Source: Tolypothrix carrinoi HA7290-LM1
GTDB taxonomy: Bacteria > Cyanobacteriota > Cyanobacteriia > Cyanobacteriales > Nostocaceae
Reading direction: 5' to 3'
NCBI GenBank assembly: GCA_019358935.1
Contig: JAHHIK010000050.1
Location: 1 to 58,118, forward strand
DNA: 58,118 nt
How positions within the stretch are numbered: the stretch's first letter is position 1; each line of letters opens with the position of its first letter. The notes below the pieces were generated by a model, which saw only the letters and a program-made list of their open reading frames with translations, did no database searches and was not told where the DNA came from. A program made the translations under genes and the position numbers. Shown here piece by piece: positions 2,977 to 40,345 of this stretch.

Positions 2977-4572
2977 TCACCCCCCATAACCCTTCCTCCC
3001 CTTAGCTTTCAGCCGCTTCACCATCTTCTCAACTTCCCCACGAGCCGGATATAACAACTGCTGACTCAAAGCACTTTTATAAGCCTGTATCGCTCCCAAC
3101 TTATCCCCTAACCCTACCAAGGCTCTCCCTAACCAGTAATCAGCCCCAGCCGGGTTCAACGCCCTCAATTCTTGACATCCCTCACAAGCCGCTTCCCACG
3201 ATCGCTTACTAGCCCCAACATCCCCCAGCACTTGGTAACTCTCCCCCAGCCAAACCAACCCAGGCACTAATTGCAGATAACCCCCTGCTGGTAAAATATG
3301 CGATCCTTTCTCCAACACCTCCACCGCTTCCTCATGTTTTCCAGCCAAGGCTAAAACCCGTCCATGACGAAACCAAGCATCAGCTAACTGGGGCTGTAGA
3401 TGCGTCCCCTGTTCAGAAACCTGACACCCCCGTTCAATCTCCTGAAAGCATTCCACCAAAACTCGCCCCGCGATCGCCCAAACACTCCAGCGTTCAGGAA
3501 ACCGCTTCAACATCTCTTCCACCAAAGGACGCAACTTCTCCAACCGTGTCGTAAGGGGTAAAATCTCGCACAACGCCCGATAGATTTCACAATCATCGGG
3601 ATACAGATGATAAGCTTTCCACATTATCTCAGCCGCTTTCTGATATTCCCCCGTGTCAAACAAGCACCGCCCATAGTAATACCAACCATAAGGATGATGC
3701 GGGTGTTCTGCGGTAAACTCTGCTAATACTTCTACACCTTGCACCCAATCCCCACGGAGAATATGATAATATGCCAGTGATTTGTGAGCCTCAGCCCCAT
3801 GAGGAGCCTGTCGCAGTGCAGAGGTAATCATATTTTTAGTCTGTTTCCCCTCTTTACCAGATACCAATCTCATCTGACAACGCCGATCAATTTGTCGTTG
3901 CAATACCCGTAAATCATCGCCAGCTAAGGCTATAACCCTGCTCAACAACTCTCTAGCTGTTTGAATATCCCCCACCGCCATCAGCGCATCATAGCTGTGA
4001 ATCAACGCGACAACATCATCTGGGTTGACTGACAAAACCTGCTTCAAGGCACTGAGAGTACCAATAGGATTTTCTCTCCCCTGATGCACCTGTGCCAAAG
4101 CCAGCCAGTGAACTACTTTGTCAGGTTCTAAAGCAGCTGCTAAATTAAAAGCGATGATTGCCTTCTGACTCTCACCTCTGCAAACTGCAATCAATCCATT
4201 TATATGATTCTGAGTCCCTGCATTTTCAGACAACAATAAGGCTTTTTCATATATTTCTATAGCCTCTTTTTGTAGTCCCATCAGCTGCAAGATTTTCCCC
4301 AGTTGCAGTCGCAGATCAATTAATAGAGGTTGTCGTGAAATCACTTGACGATATTCTGTAACTGCTTGTTGCCAGTTTCCCATCTCGTAAAGCAAATCAG
4401 CCAGTTCTAATCTTTTTTTCCATCCTTGGGGATATTTCTGAACATACTTATTTAAGGTGATGAGTTTCTGCTCTTGTCTAGCTGGCTTTTCTTCTAAAAG
4501 CAAGTGAGCATTCATCTCCAGCCCAGAGAATTGGGTGAACTGTACCAAGGAGGTGGCAAGGTTTCCAGACAT
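2977..4572 (-). CDS. Tetratricopeptide repeat protein
   Basis: 531 aa of tandem TPR helices; overlaps the 3' end of the sigma gene; start could be 4515. Confidence 0.9.
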   Translation of the reverse strand: MSGNLATSLVQFTQFSGLEMNAHLLLEEKPARQEQKLITLNKYVQKYPQGWKKRLELADLLYEMGNWQQAVTEYRQVISRQPLLIDLRLQLGKILQLMGLQKEAIEIYEKALLLSENAGTQNHINGLIAVCRGESQKAIIAFNLAAALEPDKVVHWLALAQVHQGRENPIGTLSALKQVLSVNPDDVVALIHSYDALMAVGDIQTARELLSRVIALAGDDLRVLQRQIDRRCQMRLVSGKEGKQTKNMITSALRQAPHGAEAHKSLAYYHILRGDWVQGVEVLAEFTAEHPHHPYGWYYYGRCLFDTGEYQKAAEIMWKAYHLYPDDCEIYRALCEILPLTTRLEKLRPLVEEMLKRFPERWSVWAIAGRVLVECFQEIERGCQVSEQGTHLQPQLADAWFRHGRVLALAGKHEEAVEVLEKGSHILPAGGYLQLVPGLVWLGESYQVLGDVGASKRSWEAACEGCQELRALNPAGADYWLGRALVGLGDKLGAIQAYKSALSQQLLYPARGEVEKMVKRLKAKGRKGYGG

Positions 4573-31519: not shown

Positions 31520-32518
31520 ATGCTAACTACGACAAAAACGTTGTCTGGTTTGATGGGTTTGTGTATCGGTGATGCTTTAGGTGTCCCAGTAGAATTTACT
31601 AGCCGTGTTGAACGAATTAAATCGCCAGTAACATCGATGCAGGGTTATGGAACTTGGAATGTACCACCTGGCACATGGTCTGATGATAGTTCATTGACGT
31701 TTTGTTTGGCAGAATGTCTTTGTAACGGTTTTTCTTTGGATGCGATCGCCAATTCATTCTCGCGTTGGTATCATGAAGCGTACTGGACTGCCCACGGTGA
31801 AGTCTTTGACGTTGGTAACACCACATTTTTAGCGATAGCGAAGCGCTGCTGCCTTCGGCAGATCGCTAACTATAAACAAGGAATTCCACCTTTGGAAGCC
31901 GGAGGAAAGACGGAAAATAGTAATGGTAATGGTTCTTTAATGAGAATCTTACCTATGGCTTATTATCACAAAAGCTTAACTTTTGCAGAATTGATTTCGC
32001 GGGTACACCAAGTTTCTTGTATTACCCATGCTCATATGCGATAGCGAAGCGCTGCTGCGAAGCGCAGATCGCAAATTGCCTGCGGTATATATATCAGTAT
32101 CGCAGTTTGCCTTTTGCAAGGAGTTGATCCGCAAGCAGCTTATTTACAAGGTTTAGAAAACATTCGCTCCTTTTACTCTACGTCTGTTTACGCTTTGGAA
32201 ATGCCGCATTTTTCCAGAGTCTTCGGTGGCGAAATTGACAAATTACCACTCGAAGACATTCGTTCTAGCGGCTATGTAATTGATACTTTAGAAGCGTCGC
32301 TTTGGTGTTTATTAAAAACTTCTAACTACGCCGAGGCAGTACTCAAAGCGGTAAATTTAGGGGGAGACACTGATACTACTGCCGCTGTAACTGGTGGGTT
32401 GGCGGGAATTTATTATGGGGTGGAAAATATTCCCTCAGAATGGGTTGAGCAAATTGCCCGAAAACAGGACATTATTAATTTAGCAGAACGTTTGGCAGCG
32501 GCTGTTTACGCAAAGTAG
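31520..32518 (+). pseudogene. ADP-ribosylglycohydrolase interrupted by a TAG within a 27-bp insertion
   Basis: GDALG, WSDDS, GNGSLMR, GGDTDT; the two ORFs share a frame; 27-bp inserts in HIP1 sites at 31837-31863 and 32043-32069. Confidence 0.9.
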
Positions 32519-32958: not shown

Positions 32959-34020
32959 TTAAACACCAGACAAAGAATATACCTGACCATCAATTAACAG
33001 TCGCGTGATCCCCTTAGCTTGCAGATGAGTTCGCGCTTTGTGGAGCATTTTACTATCTGGAACTTTAATTACGCGATCGCGCTTGGTAGAGAAGCGCTTT
33101 GCTACTCGGTGGTTATCAAATATCGGCAAAGTTCTTTGCTGAGTTTCGATGGTGGGAATTTGCCCCAAATCGCCAAAATCTTTCAGCGGTCGAGTGATTA
33201 ATTCTGAGGAGCGATCGATTACTAAATAGCAAGTTTTGGGCAAATGAGCTGCCGACAATGGCAAAACTTGCACCGCGACATCACCATTAGCTCGTCTTGT
33301 GACTAAAGGTCTTGGCTCCTCAAAGTCGTCATCATCCTCATCAAAATCATCATCATCTAAATCGTCGTCTAAATCGTCCAAATCCTCTGACTCGTCTAGC
33401 AAGTCTTCGCCCAGCATTTGCGCGATTACAGTCGGGTTTGGACGTTCACCCTCTAACATTGGGCTAGGAATACTAGCTATTTCTTGGGGCTTTTGTTCTA
33501 GAAGTTCTAATTGCTCCGCTACTGGTTGTCTTGGTATCGGTGTCGGTGCTGAGGAACGCCGGCGCACCCGTCTGTTAGCGGCTGCTTCCTCGTCGGTTTC
33601 ATCTTCTTGGTAAGGTTGTGCCTCTACTACTGGTGGAGGCTCAACAACTTTGATTTTTGGAGGTGCCTTGCGCGGACTTGGCAAAGAAGTTTTCGGCAAT
33701 TCCGGTGGAAAGCTTTCTTCCTTGGGAGTTGCTTTCACCTCGACTTCTTTGACTTCTTTCTCTTTTTGTGGTAGAAGTTTCGATTGCACTTGGTCATAGT
33801 TTACCTGCGCTCTGCCTTCAGGAGTTCGGGCAGCCCGCTTTAAAGAAACGAGGTATTCGTACTCGTCTTCTGGTAAGGTACTTTTGAGCAAGCGACTAAT
33901 TGTCGAATTACTAACTTCATAGCGTTCTGCCAAAGTTGAAGTTGTTTCGGCAGTCTCTCGATATAACTTAAGAATTTCTTGTTTATCAGAATCTGTTAGT
34001 TTTCTCACGGTAGATACCAA
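32959..34020 (-). CDS. Conserved cyanobacterial protein: N-terminal HTH, Pro/acidic linker, conserved C-domain
   Basis: RKLTDSDKQEILKLY..LAERYEVSNSTISR; poly-Asp tract; C-terminal LPKTCYLVIDR domain. Confidence 0.85.
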   Translation of the reverse strand: MVSTVRKLTDSDKQEILKLYRETAETTSTLAERYEVSNSTISRLLKSTLPEDEYEYLVSLKRAARTPEGRAQVNYDQVQSKLLPQKEKEVKEVEVKATPKEESFPPELPKTSLPSPRKAPPKIKVVEPPPVVEAQPYQEDETDEEAAANRRVRRRSSAPTPIPRQPVAEQLELLEQKPQEIASIPSPMLEGERPNPTVIAQMLGEDLLDESEDLDDLDDDLDDDDFDEDDDDFEEPRPLVTRRANGDVAVQVLPLSAAHLPKTCYLVIDRSSELITRPLKDFGDLGQIPTIETQQRTLPIFDNHRVAKRFSTKRDRVIKVPDSKMLHKARTHLQAKGITRLLIDGQVYSLSGV

Positions 34021-34028
34021 AATTTTTG

Positions 34029-34910
34029 TTAAGCTCGTTTTCGTCCGCCGACACGCCGCGATCGCACTTTAGATGCGTCATATTCCAAGGCTGCGCTGAT
34101 GCCAAATAACACTCCACTTATTACCCAAAATACCTCTAGTATCTCTCCACTTTGATAATTGGGAATCCGATTGGCATATTGAAACCACATATCTGCTATG
34201 TAGAGCGAAAACGCTGCGGCTGCAATCATTCGCCAAGATAGAGAAGCTCGTCCGCCCCAAAAAGCTAGCAGTAGCGTGGTGGCGATAATTAACAATAACA
34301 CGTCGCTGACAATGTAAACAGTACTTAAAACCAAAGCGATATTTTCTACCCCTGATGGCACTTGTTCGGTGACATTTACTCCTTGTGGTTGCTGAGAAAT
34401 TAGCCACGCCAAAGCGCTGCCAAATGCTCCAATTGCCGACACAATCATCCACTGCCATTTTTCCAGATTGAGTCGCCTAGAAGCAACTGCTAAAATCATG
34501 CCTACACCAAGGAACAAATAAGTCACCACAAAAAATACATCACCTAGGGAAACGATTGGCTCTTCTTTTAATACTATTTCCGTATAGCCGAAAAATATTC
34601 CGCCAAGAAAATAAGAAAGCATCCCAATGCCAATTGCCAGCCAAACATTGCGATCGCTGACAATTTGCGGACTGCGCCAATTCCTTAAGCATAATATCCC
34701 GGCACTTAAATAAGCCAATGCTTCAAAAATATTTGTACCAATTACGTACCAGGCAGCACGACTTTGTGTGCCGTCTGCTCCTGGAATTTTGGCACTAAAC
34801 AACAAAAAGTACAATAGTGCCAGCACACCCCAGGCAATACTAGCCAAAACGATGTTTCTCGTTTTGAACAGGGATTTAGTCGGATATGAATTGTTGTAAG
34901 ATGCTCTCAT
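34029..34910 (-). CDS. Multi-pass membrane protein
   Basis: About 8 hydrophobic segments. Confidence 0.85.
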   Translation of the reverse strand: MRASYNNSYPTKSLFKTRNIVLASIAWGVLALLYFLLFSAKIPGADGTQSRAAWYVIGTNIFEALAYLSAGILCLRNWRSPQIVSDRNVWLAIGIGMLSYFLGGIFFGYTEIVLKEEPIVSLGDVFFVVTYLFLGVGMILAVASRRLNLEKWQWMIVSAIGAFGSALAWLISQQPQGVNVTEQVPSGVENIALVLSTVYIVSDVLLLIIATTLLLAFWGGRASLSWRMIAAAAFSLYIADMWFQYANRIPNYQSGEILEVFWVISGVLFGISAALEYDASKVRSRRVGGRKRA

Positions 34911-35057
34911 ATAACTTAACTGTATAAATACATTCACAGCAGTGCAGTATTTTGGCAATTGGGTGCAGTCAACGGTTGATGTGACTAAAGGGTTCATTTA
35001 ACTTCAAAGCGTAGTCGAAAATTCTTTCACCAAAAGAAACTGCCGATGATATGTTGG

Positions 35058-35717
35058 TTATTGCCATAGTTTACTCAGTGGAGATTGATTTAGCCAACTG
35101 ATAAAGTGCGATCGCTCTCCCGATGGCATATCTTGTAATGTACCAGCCACAAGTTTTGCAAAGTTGGCATTGCCAAAATATCCTTTCCCCAATCGATGCA
35201 GTTCTTGCAAAAGCAGAATTACATGATTTTCTTGCCAAGCGGGAAGTTTGGCTAACTGCAATGGGTTGGTTGTCAGCAAGTTACGAGTTGTCTCTGATGA
35301 GGATACCTGGGGAAATTGCTTTTGTTGCAAAACGGACGCAATATCTTTCTCAAATAATGACGCTTGTCGAGTCCCTAAAAGCTCTTCAATGTCAACATAA
35401 ACCGCTTGCAGTAGCAATAAACTGGCTTGGATCAAAATTCCTGTCTTGCTATGACTACCAGTGTCACTATCTAGTTGCTCTAAACGGATTTTACCCCAAA
35501 CGCTGTAGCGCTCCGGTTCCTCTAGCAAGACACAGGCTTTACCTCGATTATCAGTTAATTCCCTCCACAACGCTCTAGCTTCTTCCTCTTGATTAGCCTT
35601 GAAGACGCTAATCAAACGAAACGTTAGCTCCTGATAATAAAGGATCGGCACTTGCTGATCCCGTTTTGGGTGCTGAATCGACGATATTTCAACATCCTGC
35701 CGTTTGAGAATAAACAT
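35058..35717 (-). CDS. Conserved cyanobacterial protein (resembles Npun_F0813 family)
   Basis: MFILKRQDVEI..GKACVLLEEP..YSVW; family recalled from memory, not searched. Confidence 0.75.
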   Translation of the reverse strand: MFILKRQDVEISSIQHPKRDQQVPILYYQELTFRLISVFKANQEEEARALWRELTDNRGKACVLLEEPERYSVWGKIRLEQLDSDTGSHSKTGILIQASLLLLQAVYVDIEELLGTRQASLFEKDIASVLQQKQFPQVSSSETTRNLLTTNPLQLAKLPAWQENHVILLLQELHRLGKGYFGNANFAKLVAGTLQDMPSGERSHFISWLNQSPLSKLWQ

Positions 35718-36024
35718 GGCACACCGAAATTAACTTTTGACAGGGGCATTCTTGATATGCTATCTATAATGGCACCGCAAGCTTATTGGCTCATAGTGCT
35801 TTCTTCTGGGCTTTTGGTTTGAGCGCATCCATTTGTTCCAACTCATTCACAACACAATATACAAGCGTGCAATACTCCCTAATTGAACGTTTTTCGTCTA
35901 AATTGGTAATAAGCAACTTCTTCAAGCCTAGGAGTGAAAATGCATAATCTATAATAGATTGCATTTTGCCCTTAAGCACATATATAATAAACGCTGACTC
36001 TTTCGAGGGACAATGATTTAATTT

Positions 36025-36097
36025 GGGTGTGTAACTCAGGGGATAGAGTAGCTGCCTTCTAAGCAGTCAGTCGCAGGTTCGATTCCTGCCACACCCG
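36025..36097 (+). tRNA. trnR: tRNA-Arg(UCU)
   Basis: Acceptor stem GGGTGTG/CACACCC, anticodon loop CT-TCT-AA, T arm GGTTCGATTCC; no intron. Confidence 0.92.
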
Positions 36098-36163
36098 TTT
36101 TAACTAAATACGAACCCTCAAGCATAGTAGCATGATATGATGAAGTCAGATTGAGGGTTCATT

Positions 36164-36820
36164 TTGCTGCATCATACTAAAAACAAAGGTGATATTGCTG
36201 CAACCAAAGCCATAGCCGACCTAACATTGAAAGGATACTTAATTCTTACACCCGTCGTTTGCGAACATTTACCTTTTGATTTTGTTGCGTACAAAGATGA
36301 CAAATTTTACAGAATACAAGCTAAATATTCTGGAGACAATAGAGTAGTAAATAAGACTATTTGGGTGGATAAAAACGGTATCCACCGCAGAAAGTATAAT
36401 ACAAAAGACTTTGACTTTTATGCGGTTTATCTGCCTGATATAGATAAAGTTGTTTATCCATCAATTAACTTTGGTGGTTGCTGCATCAATACCCAAATAC
36501 CTAATTCAGCTACACCGTTTTACTGGTGGGAGGATTTTACAGACTTTACTAAGGAAGCGCTGAAGCGCACTTATAAAGAATTTGGTGTAGACTTAACAAC
36601 CAGAAAGGTTAACCCAGACTCTAGAATTCACACTAGAAAAGTAGAAAGACCTTCTAAAGAAGAACTGGAAAAACTAGTGTGGTCAAAGCCAACAGCGCAA
36701 ATAGGCAAAGACTTTGGTGTTTCTGATAAAGCTGTAGAAAAATGGTGTAAGACTTATGGGATAGAGAAACCCCCTAGAGGATATTGGGTTAAAAAGGCTT
36801 ATGGAAAAATAGAAGAATAG
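36164..36820 (+). CDS. Group I intron-type PD-(D/E)XK endonuclease with C-terminal HTH, free-standing
   Basis: TKNKGDIA..PFDFVAY..RIQAKY..FDFYAVY (I-Ssp6803I-like); C-terminal PSKEELEKLVW..GVSDKAVEKWC. Confidence 0.85.
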   Translation: MLHHTKNKGDIAATKAIADLTLKGYLILTPVVCEHLPFDFVAYKDDKFYRIQAKYSGDNRVVNKTIWVDKNGIHRRKYNTKDFDFYAVYLPDIDKVVYPSINFGGCCINTQIPNSATPFYWWEDFTDFTKEALKRTYKEFGVDLTTRKVNPDSRIHTRKVERPSKEELEKLVWSKPTAQIGKDFGVSDKAVEKWCKTYGIEKPPRGYWVKKAYGKIEE

Positions 36821-36836
36821 TTAAGCGATATCTTTT

Positions 36837-38185
36837 TTAAAGAGGTTTCATCTGCTCAAGTACCTTGTTGTCAAGATACTTTTGTTCAATCATCTCTACT
36901 GAATTATCGCACCATTTAGCCACTACAGCAGTGGGAACAACGGCAGGTGCGCGTCTGCCGGGAAACCCGGACGCCAGACGCCTCAAGTCGGCAAAGCCTT
37001 TCGGCAGTCGCTCATGGGGGAAACCACGCCACATGCTTCAAGCCGGGAAACCCGTCCAACGCAGTGGCTCCCCAAGACCGCGCTGCCTCACCACGGCGCT
37101 GGCTCTCCAACGCACTGCCTCCCCTTAGCAATTTGTTCTGAGATGAAAGTATCACGACAAGAATATGGGGTTGTTTTGCGTTCTACTAAAGAATCTACAA
37201 TTTTATCCCAGGCACGGCGAGAAAAGTTTCTATAATGTATTGATAATCCTTCGGGAGAGGGAAATACTAAAGATTCTGGTTCAGGATTTTCCGGCTTAAT
37301 TTGTAGGAGTAATAACTGTAGTTTGTGGTTACAGTTAAACACTCGCTTTTTATTATTTTTAGAACCATTAACTCTGACTCTTTCACCGTTACCTACCTGA
37401 ACTAACGCACCTTCAAAGGTAATCCTAGAACAATCCGATATAACATGTTTCCACTGTAAACCGATCGCTTCCGAAGGTCTACAGCCAGTTAAAAATAAAA
37501 ACTCTACAAATGGTGCATAATAACTGTAGCCTATACCTTTAGTTGGTTTGTGATTTCTAAAAGCCTGAATTATTTTTTGCTTTTCCTCTTCACTGAAAGC
37601 ATTAGGTTCTGAATTATCTTGCCATTTATGCTTGGGGAGTTCATTATACATTCCATCAAAAAAATTATTTGTAACTAAACCGTGTTTCATTCCCCATTTA
37701 CAGGCTGCTGAAAGATACATCAGTACATCTTTTACTTGTGAATTGGTTGTTTGTTGCAACAGCGCAAGACGAATTTTTATAGGTTCATCCAATAATTGAT
37801 ATGAACAGCGTTTAATATGTTTCTCAAGTACAGCTAGTTTATCCAGCGTTGTAGGTTTTAAAGCTTGACGCTTGTAGTCAATATATTCATCCCACAATTC
37901 TGAAATTGTTGATACCTTCTGCGCTGACTCTGGTTTGACTATAGATAAATGTCTCTGCGGTTTGTACTTGTCAAGTGTTTCATCAAAGCAGTCAGCGAGT
38001 ATGTCTAGTTCTATTTCGTTTGCCTTTTGTTCTGCTAGCTTTAAATTATCTGGGGTATCGGCTAAACCAAGCGCTATATACCTTTTGTTGTTACCACATA
38101 CTTGCTTTGGCAGTCTCAATCGCAATCTATCTTGAAAAGATTCGATGGCTACCGAACCGTTGGTAGCTTTCTGTGTTGTGTTCAT
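36837..38185 (-). pseudogene. Tyrosine integrase (Arm-binding + catalytic) disrupted near the C-terminus
   Basis: RLRLRLP arm domain, LTGCRPSEAIGL, PYSCRDTF; the tail VPTAVVAKWCDNSVEMIEQKYLD carrying the probable catalytic Tyr is cut off by an insertion at ~36941-37120. Confidence 0.9.
36941..37120. repeat. Nested SDR-type small dispersed repeats
   Basis: Four concentric related units (CGGCAG..CTGCC / CGCCAG..CTGGC stems). Confidence 0.8.
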
Positions 38186-38358
38186 GCTCTCGATTTTGGC
38201 TATGAATATCATGTATTTTACAAAATCGTAGCCAAATCATAGCCAAAAAAACAAGTAGGATATCCAATAATAGACAAAAAAGCAAGATGGGATGCTCAAA
38301 AACCAGAATTTTGAACATCCTATCACTTGAAATGCTTGATTTTTCGTACTCTCAAAAA

Positions 38359-38430
38359 AGCCCGTGACGAGGATTGAACTCGTGACCTCACCCTTACCAA
38401 GGGTGTGCTCTACCACTGAGCCACACGGGC
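38359..38430 (-). tRNA. trnT: tRNA-Thr(GGU)
   Basis: GCCCGTGTGGCTCAGTGGTAGAGCACACCCTTGGTAAGGGTGAGGTCACGAGTTCAATCCTCGTCACGGGCT. Confidence 0.97.
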
Positions 38431-38516
38431 AAAATAGCCTTAAGATAGGGATTTGTTAATTTCTCAACTATGCTAACGCATAATTCTAAAATCAACACTG
38501 ATGATTTGTAGTGAGA

Positions 38517-38597
38517 TGGGCCGAGCTGGATTTGAACCAGCGTAGCTTTCGCAACGGATTTACAGTCCGTCTCCATTAACCACTCGGACATCGACCC
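38517..38597 (-). tRNA. trnY: tRNA-Tyr(GUA)
   Basis: GGGTCGATGTCCGAGTGG..GACTGTAAATCC..long variable arm..GGTTCAAATCC; the usual cyanobacterial trnY-trnT pair. Confidence 0.97.
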
Positions 38598-38784
38598 ATT
38601 TATCTCACGATTACTAATAGTAGCATAAGGTTTTAGAAATGCCAATAGTTTTTGCAAACAAATTTGCGGAAAGTTTGAGCGGAGGTTTCCTCCGATCAAA
38701 GCTTTACAAGACAGAGTAATGGCATTGCCGGAACAAAACGTACAATAAAGCTAGGTTTACTCTTGGAATGTGAGCGATTCGGCA

Positions 38785-39384
38785 ATGAAGACGCAAGCTT
38801 AATGGTCTGTGGATGACTATCATCGCATGGTTCAAGCGGGAATTCTGAGCGTAGACGCTCTTAGCGGCTTGTCGCCAGACATCGCCGTGTAGAATTGCAC
38901 TCGTAGCGAAATTGTTGAAATGAGTCCAGAAACCCCGATTCATTACAGTACGGCAAAACGAGGCGCGAAATACAAGCGAGGAGTTACTCTTAGGTAAAGC
39001 CGATGTTCGTTTTAATGGACCAATTACACTATCTAACTCGGAACCTGAACCAGATATCGCGTTGGCGTAGCCTCTCAGAATGAGAATCGCTCGATTACCC
39101 GAGTCAGCTTACAACAATCGTCAGGATTGCACCTGAAGATATATTTTGGGTGGTAGAGGTTGCCAAGACAAGCTTGAAGAAAGATTTAGAACTTAAAGCT
39201 TGTATTTACGCTGCTGCTTTGATTCTGTGAATATTGGGTTTTGGATTTGTCTGCAAAGCAAATAATTGTATTTCGAGAACCATTAGACGGTAATTATACT
39301 ACGGAAGAAACTATTGTAAAGGGAACGATTACACCGTTGGCATTTTTAGACATTCAGGTATCGGTTGAGAAACTGTTGGGTTGA
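38785..39384 (+). pseudogene. Degraded Uma2-family endonuclease
   Basis: Fragments WSVDDYHRMVQAGIL, SEPEPDIA, IFWVVEVAKTSLKKD, EYWVLDL, with stops, frameshifts and repeat inserts (38849-38885, ~39060-39090). Confidence 0.85.
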
Positions 39385-39622
39385 GCAATAACGCTGTTGA
39401 ATAAGAGATAATCTGTAGTAACTGGGCGTTGCGGGTTATGAAATTTTGGGTACTTCTTAATCGTCAATTCAGGCGATCGGGCATCACAAGTTGGCGGTTA
39501 CGCGACGCGTAACCGCCAATATAAGATTGCGATCGCGCTGTGCTGTGTTGCGTAAGTTCTGTGGCTGTGAAGCTAATGCCACTCCCGACAAAGTTAATTT
39601 TATTTCTCTGGGAAGTAGTTAG

Positions 39623-40345
39623 ATGTCTAACCTAACAAACTTTACATTTACAGATATGGTTGAATTTGGGTTGGATCTGTGCCAGCTCGGCTTGGGGATA
39701 GAAAGTATGGAGTCTGCCAGTAACAGAATTGTTAAGTATTTCTACGAACATTTGATTGACGAGCAAACTGGTACTCCGGTTTGCGCGCTTATTCGCTGCT
39801 TCAAAACCCATTCTTATCAGGATCTTGATGCGAAACTGAGCGAGTCTGTCCGTAGCCAGTTGGGTTATACTCCATCTGGAACCATGAAATGCTTGACTAT
39901 GCTGGCAACAGTTGGTGACAAACCGGAATGGAACTCAAGGCACAGCTCCGTTGGACATAAGATTATCCCCTTGGTAAGCGAAGATGTGGTTGCACAGTTT
40001 CCGATGATTTCACAACTGCTCAAACAGTTCGGCTTAGATGTAAGCATGGTCATCAGATCCGGTCGCCAACTTATAATAGGGTCTGAGGAGAGGAAACTTA
40101 ACGTATTCTATGTGCCTGTAGCAAAAGGCAGCCCCTACATTCCTTCCCAGGAGTCATTTGTGATTCCATTTAACATCAAGTCTGTGCTGGGTTTTGGCGG
40201 TTTATTGCCTTCGGGCAATCTGTTTGCGATTATCATCTTCTCGAAAGTTCCTATTCCCCGTAGCACTGGTGAAATCTTTAAATCCCTAGCGCCGAGTGTC
40301 AGGTCAGCCTTGTTGCGCTTTGATGGAAAAACTGTCTTTGCCTAG
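39623..40345 (+). CDS. Hypothetical protein; stand-alone version of a sensor-like domain
   Basis: 240 aa; CALIRCFKTH, WNSRHSSVGH, SPYIPSQESFV..SVLGFGGLLPSG. Confidence 0.75.
   Translation: MSNLTNFTFTDMVEFGLDLCQLGLGIESMESASNRIVKYFYEHLIDEQTGTPVCALIRCFKTHSYQDLDAKLSESVRSQLGYTPSGTMKCLTMLATVGDKPEWNSRHSSVGHKIIPLVSEDVVAQFPMISQLLKQFGLDVSMVIRSGRQLIIGSEERKLNVFYVPVAKGSPYIPSQESFVIPFNIKSVLGFGGLLPSGNLFAIIIFSKVPIPRSTGEIFKSLAPSVRSALLRFDGKTVFA

Follow-up and report, generated by a model that had tools for sequence, protein, structure and literature searches.

A free-standing PD-(D/E)XK nuclease beside the housekeeping tRNA-Arg(UCU) gene of Nostocaceae: probable intronless homing between competing anticodon-arm alleles

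Introduction

In Synechocystis PCC 6803 a group I intron within tRNA-fMet encodes the homing endonuclease I-Ssp6803I (PMC3073962), whose target sequence reads as a tRNA anticodon stem-loop (I-SspI; PMC2175346). SegB of phage T4 is a free-standing GIY-YIG endonuclease that has loose specificity for many tRNA-related sites; it lies beside tRNA-Arg, carries a hairpin over its ribosome-binding site together with an internal promoter, and shows co-conversion of flanking markers (PMC2988022, PMC13096335). A third tRNA-tied nuclease, the HNH protein all8564 by the trn L-array of Anabaena PCC 7120, has been proposed to spread tRNA genes (PMC8421152).

Here we analyzed a 58,118-nt stretch of DNA from Tolypothrix carrinoi HA7290-LM1 (referred to below as the window), in which an intronless tRNA-Arg(UCU) gene, trnR-UCU, is followed by an open reading frame (ORF) for a predicted PD-(D/E)XK nuclease. 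The protein resembles I-Ssp6803I (PF11645, 2OST) in its fold, in equivalents of D8, D36, Q49, and K51, and in its tie to a tRNA anticodon arm. Unlike I-Ssp6803I, it is encoded outside an intron and at trnR-UCU, shares only ~22-33% identity with that enzyme, carries an added C-terminal helix-turn-helix (HTH) module, occurs in several putative specificity types, and has Ala in place of E11. It resembles SegB in its free-standing position beside tRNA-Arg and in the co-conversion of flanking markers, and its spacer has a similar layout, with a predicted hairpin over the ribosome-binding site and a putative internal promoter; however, SegB belongs to a different nuclease fold and to phages, whereas the protein studied here is chromosomally encoded in bacteria, is tied to a single tRNA gene that is essential and present in one copy, and occurs in matched nuclease/allele pairs. 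The all8564 case concerns an accessory inducible array, whereas the present one concerns a housekeeping gene and the replacement of its alleles. The nuclease of the window probably acts in the manner of SegB and further homing endonucleases of the free-standing kind (PMC2988022, PMC13096335, and PMC3984707). Our literature search returned no description of this nuclease family or of its pairing with tRNA alleles, although the primary papers on I-Ssp6803I and on intron origin may mention free-standing tRNA-linked homologues.

Results and Discussion

The linked tRNA is a housekeeping gene

The genome that contains the window as its contig C50 (G000) measures 7.96 Mb, and the nearest named homologues of its nuclease ORF come from Tolypothrix (99%) and Hassallia (97%) genomes. 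An earlier note on this DNA, made from its letters alone, had described an intronless tRNA-Arg(UCU) followed by an inverted repeat and an intact nuclease with an added HTH domain. The tRNA gene was confirmed at 36025-36097 on the plus strand by ARAGORN, by an Rfam score of 67.6 bits, and by its cloverleaf. No group I intron was matched in positions 34000-40000 of the window, where ARAGORN and Rfam both report an uninterrupted tRNA. The 'group I intron-associated' label given by NCBI is thus incorrect here. The anticodon arm, GCTGC-CTTCTAA-GCAGT (36051..36067, plus strand), represents the C-class allele, defined by C31 (36055), C32 (36056), and G39 (36063); the alternative T-class arm reads A31, T32, and T39 at these positions. 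The tRNA promoter and leader, recognized from sequence at 35910..36024 (plus strand), include TATAAT at 35983-35988 as the putative -10 element and approximate the upstream edge of the replaced tract described below. Farther upstream, outside the element, lies the host gene DUF7469 (35058..35717, minus strand; Pfam PF24276, E 3e-110), which we used as a marker of host phylogeny.

The tRNA-Arg(UCU) beside the nuclease is the housekeeping copy rather than a spare one. DUF7469 precedes trnR-UCU in 160 of the 182 distinct loci examined, with the nuclease present or absent, and the linked trnR-UCU is present in one copy in almost all genomes. A search of G000 for another trnR-UCU, as the earlier note had advised, did find a single one, a divergent copy within a tRNA array on contig C42. 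The suggestion that the linked gene is an extra tRNA backing up a cleaved host tRNA loses its basis, because that gene is itself the syntenic housekeeping copy.

Fold, active site, and C-terminal module of the nuclease

The nuclease ORF (36164-36820, plus strand) starts with TTG and encodes 218 amino acids without an internal stop. Its PD-(D/E)XK domain (36164..36556, plus strand), assigned by Pfam, homologue alignment, and a predicted model, has the I-Ssp6803I fold. The Pfam PDDEXK_5 match covers residues 3-104 (E 1e-20), and the PF11645 profile scored 74.6 bits against a curated cut-off of 26.1. The model (pLDDT 87.6) places strands at residues 64-69 and 72-77; in a VIA search with this model the best fold match was I-Ssp6803I (2OST; Z 14.3, rmsd 2.3, 127 aligned residues), followed by a match with Z 8.2. 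A PADLOC search (2023 library) gave PDLC03700 'HEase' as the sole match (E 1.7e-5) and none for the two neighboring genes, and an NCBIfam search with the ORF gave no hit.

Residues D10, D39, Q52, and K54 align with D8, D36, Q49, and K51 of I-Ssp6803I. Among 120 homologues D39 is conserved in 115, Q52 in 117, and K54 in 118, the remainder being gaps or unaligned, and D10 and E34 are near-invariant. In contrast, the position of the I-Ssp6803I residue E11 is occupied by Ala13 in the window and is non-acidic in all 117 aligned sequences of the 120 (A in 71, V in 24, T in 20, S in 1, and L in 1). The catalytic activity of this predicted nuclease is putative, because the E11Q mutant of I-Ssp6803I is described as inactive (PMC2175346) and the corresponding position here is Ala. 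We conjecture from the alignment that E34 or D10 replaces the catalytic glutamate. The earlier description of an intact nuclease with an HTH domain holds for the uninterrupted frame and for the HTH-like domain, but not for the complete set of I-Ssp6803I active-site residues.

Residues 59-75 (36338..36388, plus strand) form a β-hairpin that tracks the linked tRNA allele (N59, R60, V62, and I66 in type A, the type of the window) and is a candidate DNA-reading element. This region aligns with the arginine-rich strands of I-Ssp6803I, which Zhao is said to have found in 2007 to read the DNA. The C-terminal HTH module (36632..36820 with the stop codon, plus strand) comprises a helical, HTH-like domain at residues ~157-212 that matches the C-terminus of the phage HNH family phrog_15471 (E 2e-11). 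Fusions of this module also occur with HNH nucleases and with a different PDDEXK_5 nuclease, all encoded in or beside tRNA arrays (G000:C42:124-1483; L314-L316, L318, and L320). The module may bind tRNA genes; its putative role is likely to add binding or autorepression. The ORF is under purifying selection, with dN/dS of 0.09 (type A) and 0.13 (type B) for the nuclease domain and 0.06 for the HTH.

The spacer between tRNA and nuclease

The inverted repeat noticed earlier is perfect over 10 bp, with 29 nt between its arms, and is retained at the same position in relatives. Its left arm, GAACCCTCAA (36112-36121, plus strand), would act as an anti-Shine-Dalgarno sequence in read-through transcripts and may also be half of an operator; its right arm, TTGAGGGTTC (36151-36160, plus strand), contains a Shine-Dalgarno-like GAGG (36153-36156) and ends shortly before the ORF, 7 nt separating the motif from the TTG. 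The hairpin has a predicted energy of -17.8 kcal/mol (z -2.7), equaled by 2 of 200 shuffled sequences. Its loop holds an extended -10-like element, TG-A-TATGAT (36133..36141, plus strand), which from its conservation in spacers appears to be an internal promoter: across 31 spacers, T36, G37, and T39 of the motif TGnTAnnnT are at least 90% conserved, and A40 and T44 are invariant. A promoter scan of the spacer reported no consensus sigma-70 site on the plus strand and no terminator. An identical layout of hairpin, Shine-Dalgarno sequence, and internal promoter, built on a different 14-bp stem and a different sequence, was found in two phage-like loci (L151 and L164). At the locus of a relative (L266) the gene is covered by contigs of four RNA runs, which give neither strand nor start nor level.

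In I-TevI and SegB the ribosome-binding site is hidden within long transcripts and is released by transcription from an internal promoter (PMC2988022). The window shows the same layout, a predicted stem over the ribosome-binding site with a putative promoter inside the stem-loop. Of the two roles that the earlier note had offered for the repeat, sequestration of the start fits the Shine-Dalgarno sequence in the 3' arm and the -10 element in the loop, and the repeat may alternatively serve as operator for the HTH. In the 31 Nostocales spacers 83% of cells were paired, a share reached by 403 of 500 shuffles, and no covariation measure exceeded the shuffles; the arms are kept as sequence without excess covariation. 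With covariation at the shuffled level, the repeat may act as an RNA hairpin or as a DNA operator.

These features bear on an alternative in which the protein is a catalytically dead or altered DNA-binding protein, for instance a regulator of the tRNA promoter, that recognizes its own allele and hitchhikes with it. The non-acidic E11 position, the HTH together with an inverted repeat flanking a promoter-like element, and the conservation of the arms as sequence would all suit such a protein. However, D39, Q52, K54, D10, and E34 are near-invariant, the gene is missing from most genomes, and a regulator supplies no drive for the 42 allele changes, the HNH gene at the same site, or the intron-split alleles described below. 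We regard this alternative as improbable.

Linkage to trnR-UCU and distribution

A survey of the neighbors of nuclease homologues for tRNA genes, also advised in the earlier note, gave a clear answer. Among the 80 loci found in genomes, trnR-UCU is linked in 79: in 78 it lies on the same strand and ends 60-78 nt before the nuclease start, and in the 79th, where the nuclease copy is split by IS66, the tRNA is located further upstream. The 80th, from Potamolinea (L089), is without trnR-UCU and lies 9 nt from trnT-GGU; this is possibly a target switch. The L089 homologue (3001-3654 of that locus) has a different hairpin, and the neighboring trnT-GGU has a variant arm.

The distant set comprised 79 distinct metagenomic or viral loci, after identical proteins had been collapsed and two loci of Nostocales type excluded. 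Within 260 nt of the homologue trnR-UCU was present in 49 of them, intronless in 39 and intron-split in 10; the remaining loci had other tRNAs only (21), short flanks (6), or no tRNA (3). The orientation of the tRNA relative to the nuclease varies among these loci. In two cultured phages, Synechococcus phage Sf-FR1 and Acinetobacter phage Herod, a shorter homologue immediately follows a tRNA-Arg gene, one of these tRNAs being annotated tct.

Nuclease matches at E<=1e-100 were obtained in 76 of the 301 genomes of the window's family, and many others have copies with stops or frameshifts, or fragments, so that the site occurs in occupied, decayed, and empty states. In a sample of the phylum, 12 of 351 genomes had a match, 8 of them from the window's family, and the plasmid search returned no full-length homologue.

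Two anticodon-arm classes and two nuclease types

A pattern search of the 301 family genomes for the anticodon arm revealed 210 genomes of class C (GC-CTTCTAA-GC) and 91 of class T (GA-TTTCTAA-TC). One genome (G118) has both classes, with one trnR-UCU each (L303 and L304), and another (G044) has neither; its locus (L273) carries a third arm, T31-C32-A39, beside an intact nuclease. The classes are mixed within at least eight of the listed genera, for example 3/5 in g1, 10/5 in g5, 4/3 in g6, 2/3 in g7, and 4/3 in g13. The common T-class stem, ACGGA/TCCGT, is also the common stem of the neighboring tRNA-Tyr(GUA) (38515-38598 of the window), by chance or by conversion.

We pooled 208 loci, which left 182 after collapsing, with one second copy from G118 set aside. 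We scored a nuclease copy as intact when a single match spanned 200 residues or more and no stop fell within the first 205, and two copies with internal deletions were reclassed as broken. The 182 loci then comprised 68 intact copies beside a C arm, 31 beside a T arm, 1 beside the third arm, 29 broken copies, and 53 loci without a copy of this nuclease, among which both arm classes occur as well.

Hairpin columns 62 and 66 separate the 68 C from the 31 T intact copies with zero errors. Columns 60, 73, and 75 make one error each and column 59 makes two, and the six best columns all fall within residues 59-75. Every nuclease type is accompanied by a particular form of the tRNA anticodon arm. On nuclease trees (a quick tree and a FastTree tree) made without the hairpin columns the class changes twice; one of these changes is a group of four g62 copies that fall within the B clade (support 97) but have altered hairpin residues and a C arm. 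The 62/66 rule comes from the intact copies themselves, and the nuclease tree offers only two independent changes in its favor, too few to reach significance (sign test p 0.5); the rule (K62) fails in the distant homologues beyond the family.

Nuclease type and allele are mismatched in 0 of 99 intact copies versus 3 clear cases and 1 ambiguous case among 17 readable broken copies. The clear cases are type A copies beside a T arm in G047, G232, and G100, and the ambiguous one is in G056 (Fisher p 0.003 for the 3, with a rule taken from the same intact set and with kin that are non-independent). A search of G000 for the T-class 17-mer arm found no site with 0 or 1 mismatch; with 2 mismatches there were 4 sites, compared to 2 in the control.

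Arm class switches against host descent

The host tree was built with FastTree from a single 657-nt gene, DUF7469. On this tree of 160 loci the arm class changes 42 times, near the random expectation (shuffled mean 47.2, minimum 40), a count from a non-random sample, enriched for nuclease carriers and including 30 loci of each class, and not a population rate. The nearest DUF7469 neighbor has the other class in 65 of the 159 rows. The arm class co-segregates with the nuclease type and not with the adjacent host gene.

The boundary of the exchanged sequence is visible in close pairs. The nearest DUF7469 neighbor of the window's genome (G001, 99.2%) has a T arm and ~76% identity across the tRNA. 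Counted in 50-nt steps toward the anticodon, the two differ at 0-2 positions between -450 and -150 and then at 7, 14, and 17. In 11 close pairs differences climb sharply within the ~25-150 nt that precede the anticodon, and the more distal intergenic sequence shows some scatter; in the cleanest pairs a gene ~300 nt away is up to 99% identical. Nearby sequence has been co-converted, incongruently with host descent, in these non-randomly sampled loci. As a control, in 57 loci with all three tRNAs the arm changes 16 times in Arg(UCU), 3 times in Thr(GGU), and once in Tyr(GUA); in a 40-locus subset the respective changes are 8, 0, and 0. The linkage, the 42 class changes on the host tree versus two on the nuclease tree, and the co-segregation give strong comparative support to the proposal of the earlier note that tRNA and nuclease form a unit that spreads by intronless homing.

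The same data have to be weighed against a defensive function, in which the protein is a DNase directed against trnR-UCU on incoming phages or arrays, the arm is shaped by self-avoidance alone, and exchange of the cassette reflects ordinary recombination combined with frequency-dependent selection. Potential targets are plentiful, trnR-UCU making up 44 of 308 intronless tRNA calls in the distant (phage-like and array) loci; the purifying selection on the ORF suits this function, and the confinement of mismatches to broken copies would follow from self-avoidance under either explanation. However, the same family adjoins trnR-UCU within the phages and arrays themselves, the nuclease decays frequently, and its sole PADLOC match is a homing-endonuclease model. 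The sharp onset of the replaced tract ~25-150 nt from the anticodon, next to a gene ~300 nt off that is up to 99% identical, also argues against it, and we consider a defensive function unlikely.

Unrelated nucleases and introns at the same tRNA

In G001 a 182-aa HNH gene (phrog_2255, E 7e-51) abuts trnR-UCU on the opposite strand. Of the 301 genomes, 5, belonging to four genera, have a close homologue of this HNH protein at that position, all with the CAGA stem subtype, an arm subtype seen in 12 of 91 T genomes and in 0 of 31 intact type B loci. Two g5 genomes have a 96-aa HNH-like ORF ~100 nt behind a C-class trnR-UCU (L250:1652-1939 and L252:1661-1948).

Ten distinct phage-like loci (L151, L152, L156, L158, L159, L162, L164, L165, L176, and L184) have, directly upstream of a member of the nuclease family, a trnR-UCU split after U34 (U34/C35) by a 227-231 nt group I-like insert. 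Rfam did not score these trnR-UCU inserts as group I introns; the group I assignment is based on the U|...G| junction and on core blocks shared with the tRNA-fMet intron of G000, which itself matches RF00028 at E 1e-9. We know of no description of an intron between U34 and C35 of trnR-UCU. In one phage-like subfamily the linked tRNA has either an intron-split C-type arm (L151 and L164) or a diverged intronless arm (L157 and L185). An intron can protect the DNA but not the mature tRNA, so the intron-split alleles point to DNA as the target. Protection of a site by an intron is a concept found in PMC3984707; in the window, where the tRNA is intronless, altered bases of the arm would have to provide it instead. 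A much closer homologue of I-Ssp6803I, also free-standing, lies in G000 behind an intron-bearing tRNA-fMet (L321; G000:C11:50900-52300).

The intron-split alleles also bear on the explanation that the protein is a tRNA anticodon nuclease, a toxin or abortive-infection RNase accompanied by a resistant backup tRNA. The tight link to one tRNA and the residues that track its anticodon arm would be expected of such an enzyme, and tRNA splicing endonucleases as well as a CdiA toxin domain are among the folds related to the model, though only at Z 4-6. The best fold match, at Z 14.3, is a DNase, the linked tRNA is the housekeeping copy and single in almost all genomes, and the split alleles yield the same mature tRNA and could protect only against a cut at the DNA level. 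We view a tRNA-cleaving function as very improbable.

Proposed mechanism and its significance

From comparative sequence evidence we conclude that competing free-standing homing endonucleases probably replace the allele of an essential chromosomal tRNA by intronless homing. The nuclease would be weakly expressed, as read-through from the tRNA promoter would form the hairpin over the Shine-Dalgarno site and a promoter in the loop would give a translatable mRNA. An oligomer would bind the pseudo-palindromic DNA of the anticodon stem-loop, as I-Ssp6803I does, with residues 59-75 reading arm positions 31, 32, and 39. Type A, encoded in the window beside C31-C32-G39, would spare its own allele and cut A31-T32-T39, and type B would do the reverse, sparing A31-T32-T39 and cutting C31-C32-G39; the arm of the window would be the form of the target that is immune. 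On contact between foreign DNA and the chromosome, break repair would replace the arm, or the whole tRNA and the downstream gene. The several types (A, B, the g62/g52 type, the G044 type, and the unrelated HNH) would keep providing each other with targets, and we propose that this mutual supply explains the polymorphism across genera.

A broader reading, for and against which we see about equal grounds, is that three or more homing endonucleases (A, B, variants, and HNH), each cutting the alleles of the others, compete persistently over an essential single-copy tRNA. Each would be immune by its own arm allele and would furnish the others with targets. Such competition would escape the cycle of invasion, fixation, and decay and would uphold a selfish tRNA polymorphism across genera; specificity would be encoded by a handful of residues in the hairpin, and the active site would lack the glutamate of I-Ssp6803I.

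If homing is the correct explanation, the locus would be a clear case of intronless homing on bacterial chromosomes, a process so far studied in phages, and one that rewrites a housekeeping tRNA. The sequence evolution of this tRNA would then be driven by selfish nucleases and not by translation, in keeping with the Thr and Tyr arms hardly changing while the Arg arm switches repeatedly. The reciprocal nuclease/allele pairs make testable how homing endonucleases persist after target exhaustion, and, as the matched pairs differ by three bases and a handful of residues, they offer a ready system for mapping PD-(D/E)XK specificity.

Integrase and other features of the window and genome

Since tRNA genes are common integration sites, we also considered that the nuclease is passive cargo of an element integrated at trnR-UCU or trnT-GGU by the integrase encoded at 37088-38212. 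An integrase-like ORF does lie 270 nt downstream of the nuclease. However, no duplicated tRNA 3' end was present in 35700-38700 among the 20 of 32 direct repeat families listed, and integrase-like matches occur in only 21 of 182 loci (flanks of 1.5-3 kb). Several loci have trnT 26-38 nt after the nuclease, and G001 has the integrase without the nuclease. With no att repeat among those listed and with poor co-occurrence, an integrase island is largely refuted, and cargo status is extremely unlikely.

The integrase, an arm-type tyrosine integrase behind tRNA-Thr(GGU) (36837-38212, minus strand), has its C-terminal codons cut off by a GC-rich repeat (~36940-37120), one of many copies dispersed through the genome; the integrase copy in G001 reads through, with a shorter insert. 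Elsewhere in G000, a long tRNA array with 23 called genes lies at G000:C183:6577-9684, and ARAGORN called a tRNA with a CTA (amber) anticodon at G000:C91:28540-28613. Upstream of the locus, positions 31520-32518 of the window (plus strand) contain two successive ORFs of 174 and 134 amino acids, which resemble the two halves of one putative ADP-ribosylglycohydrolase-like gene.
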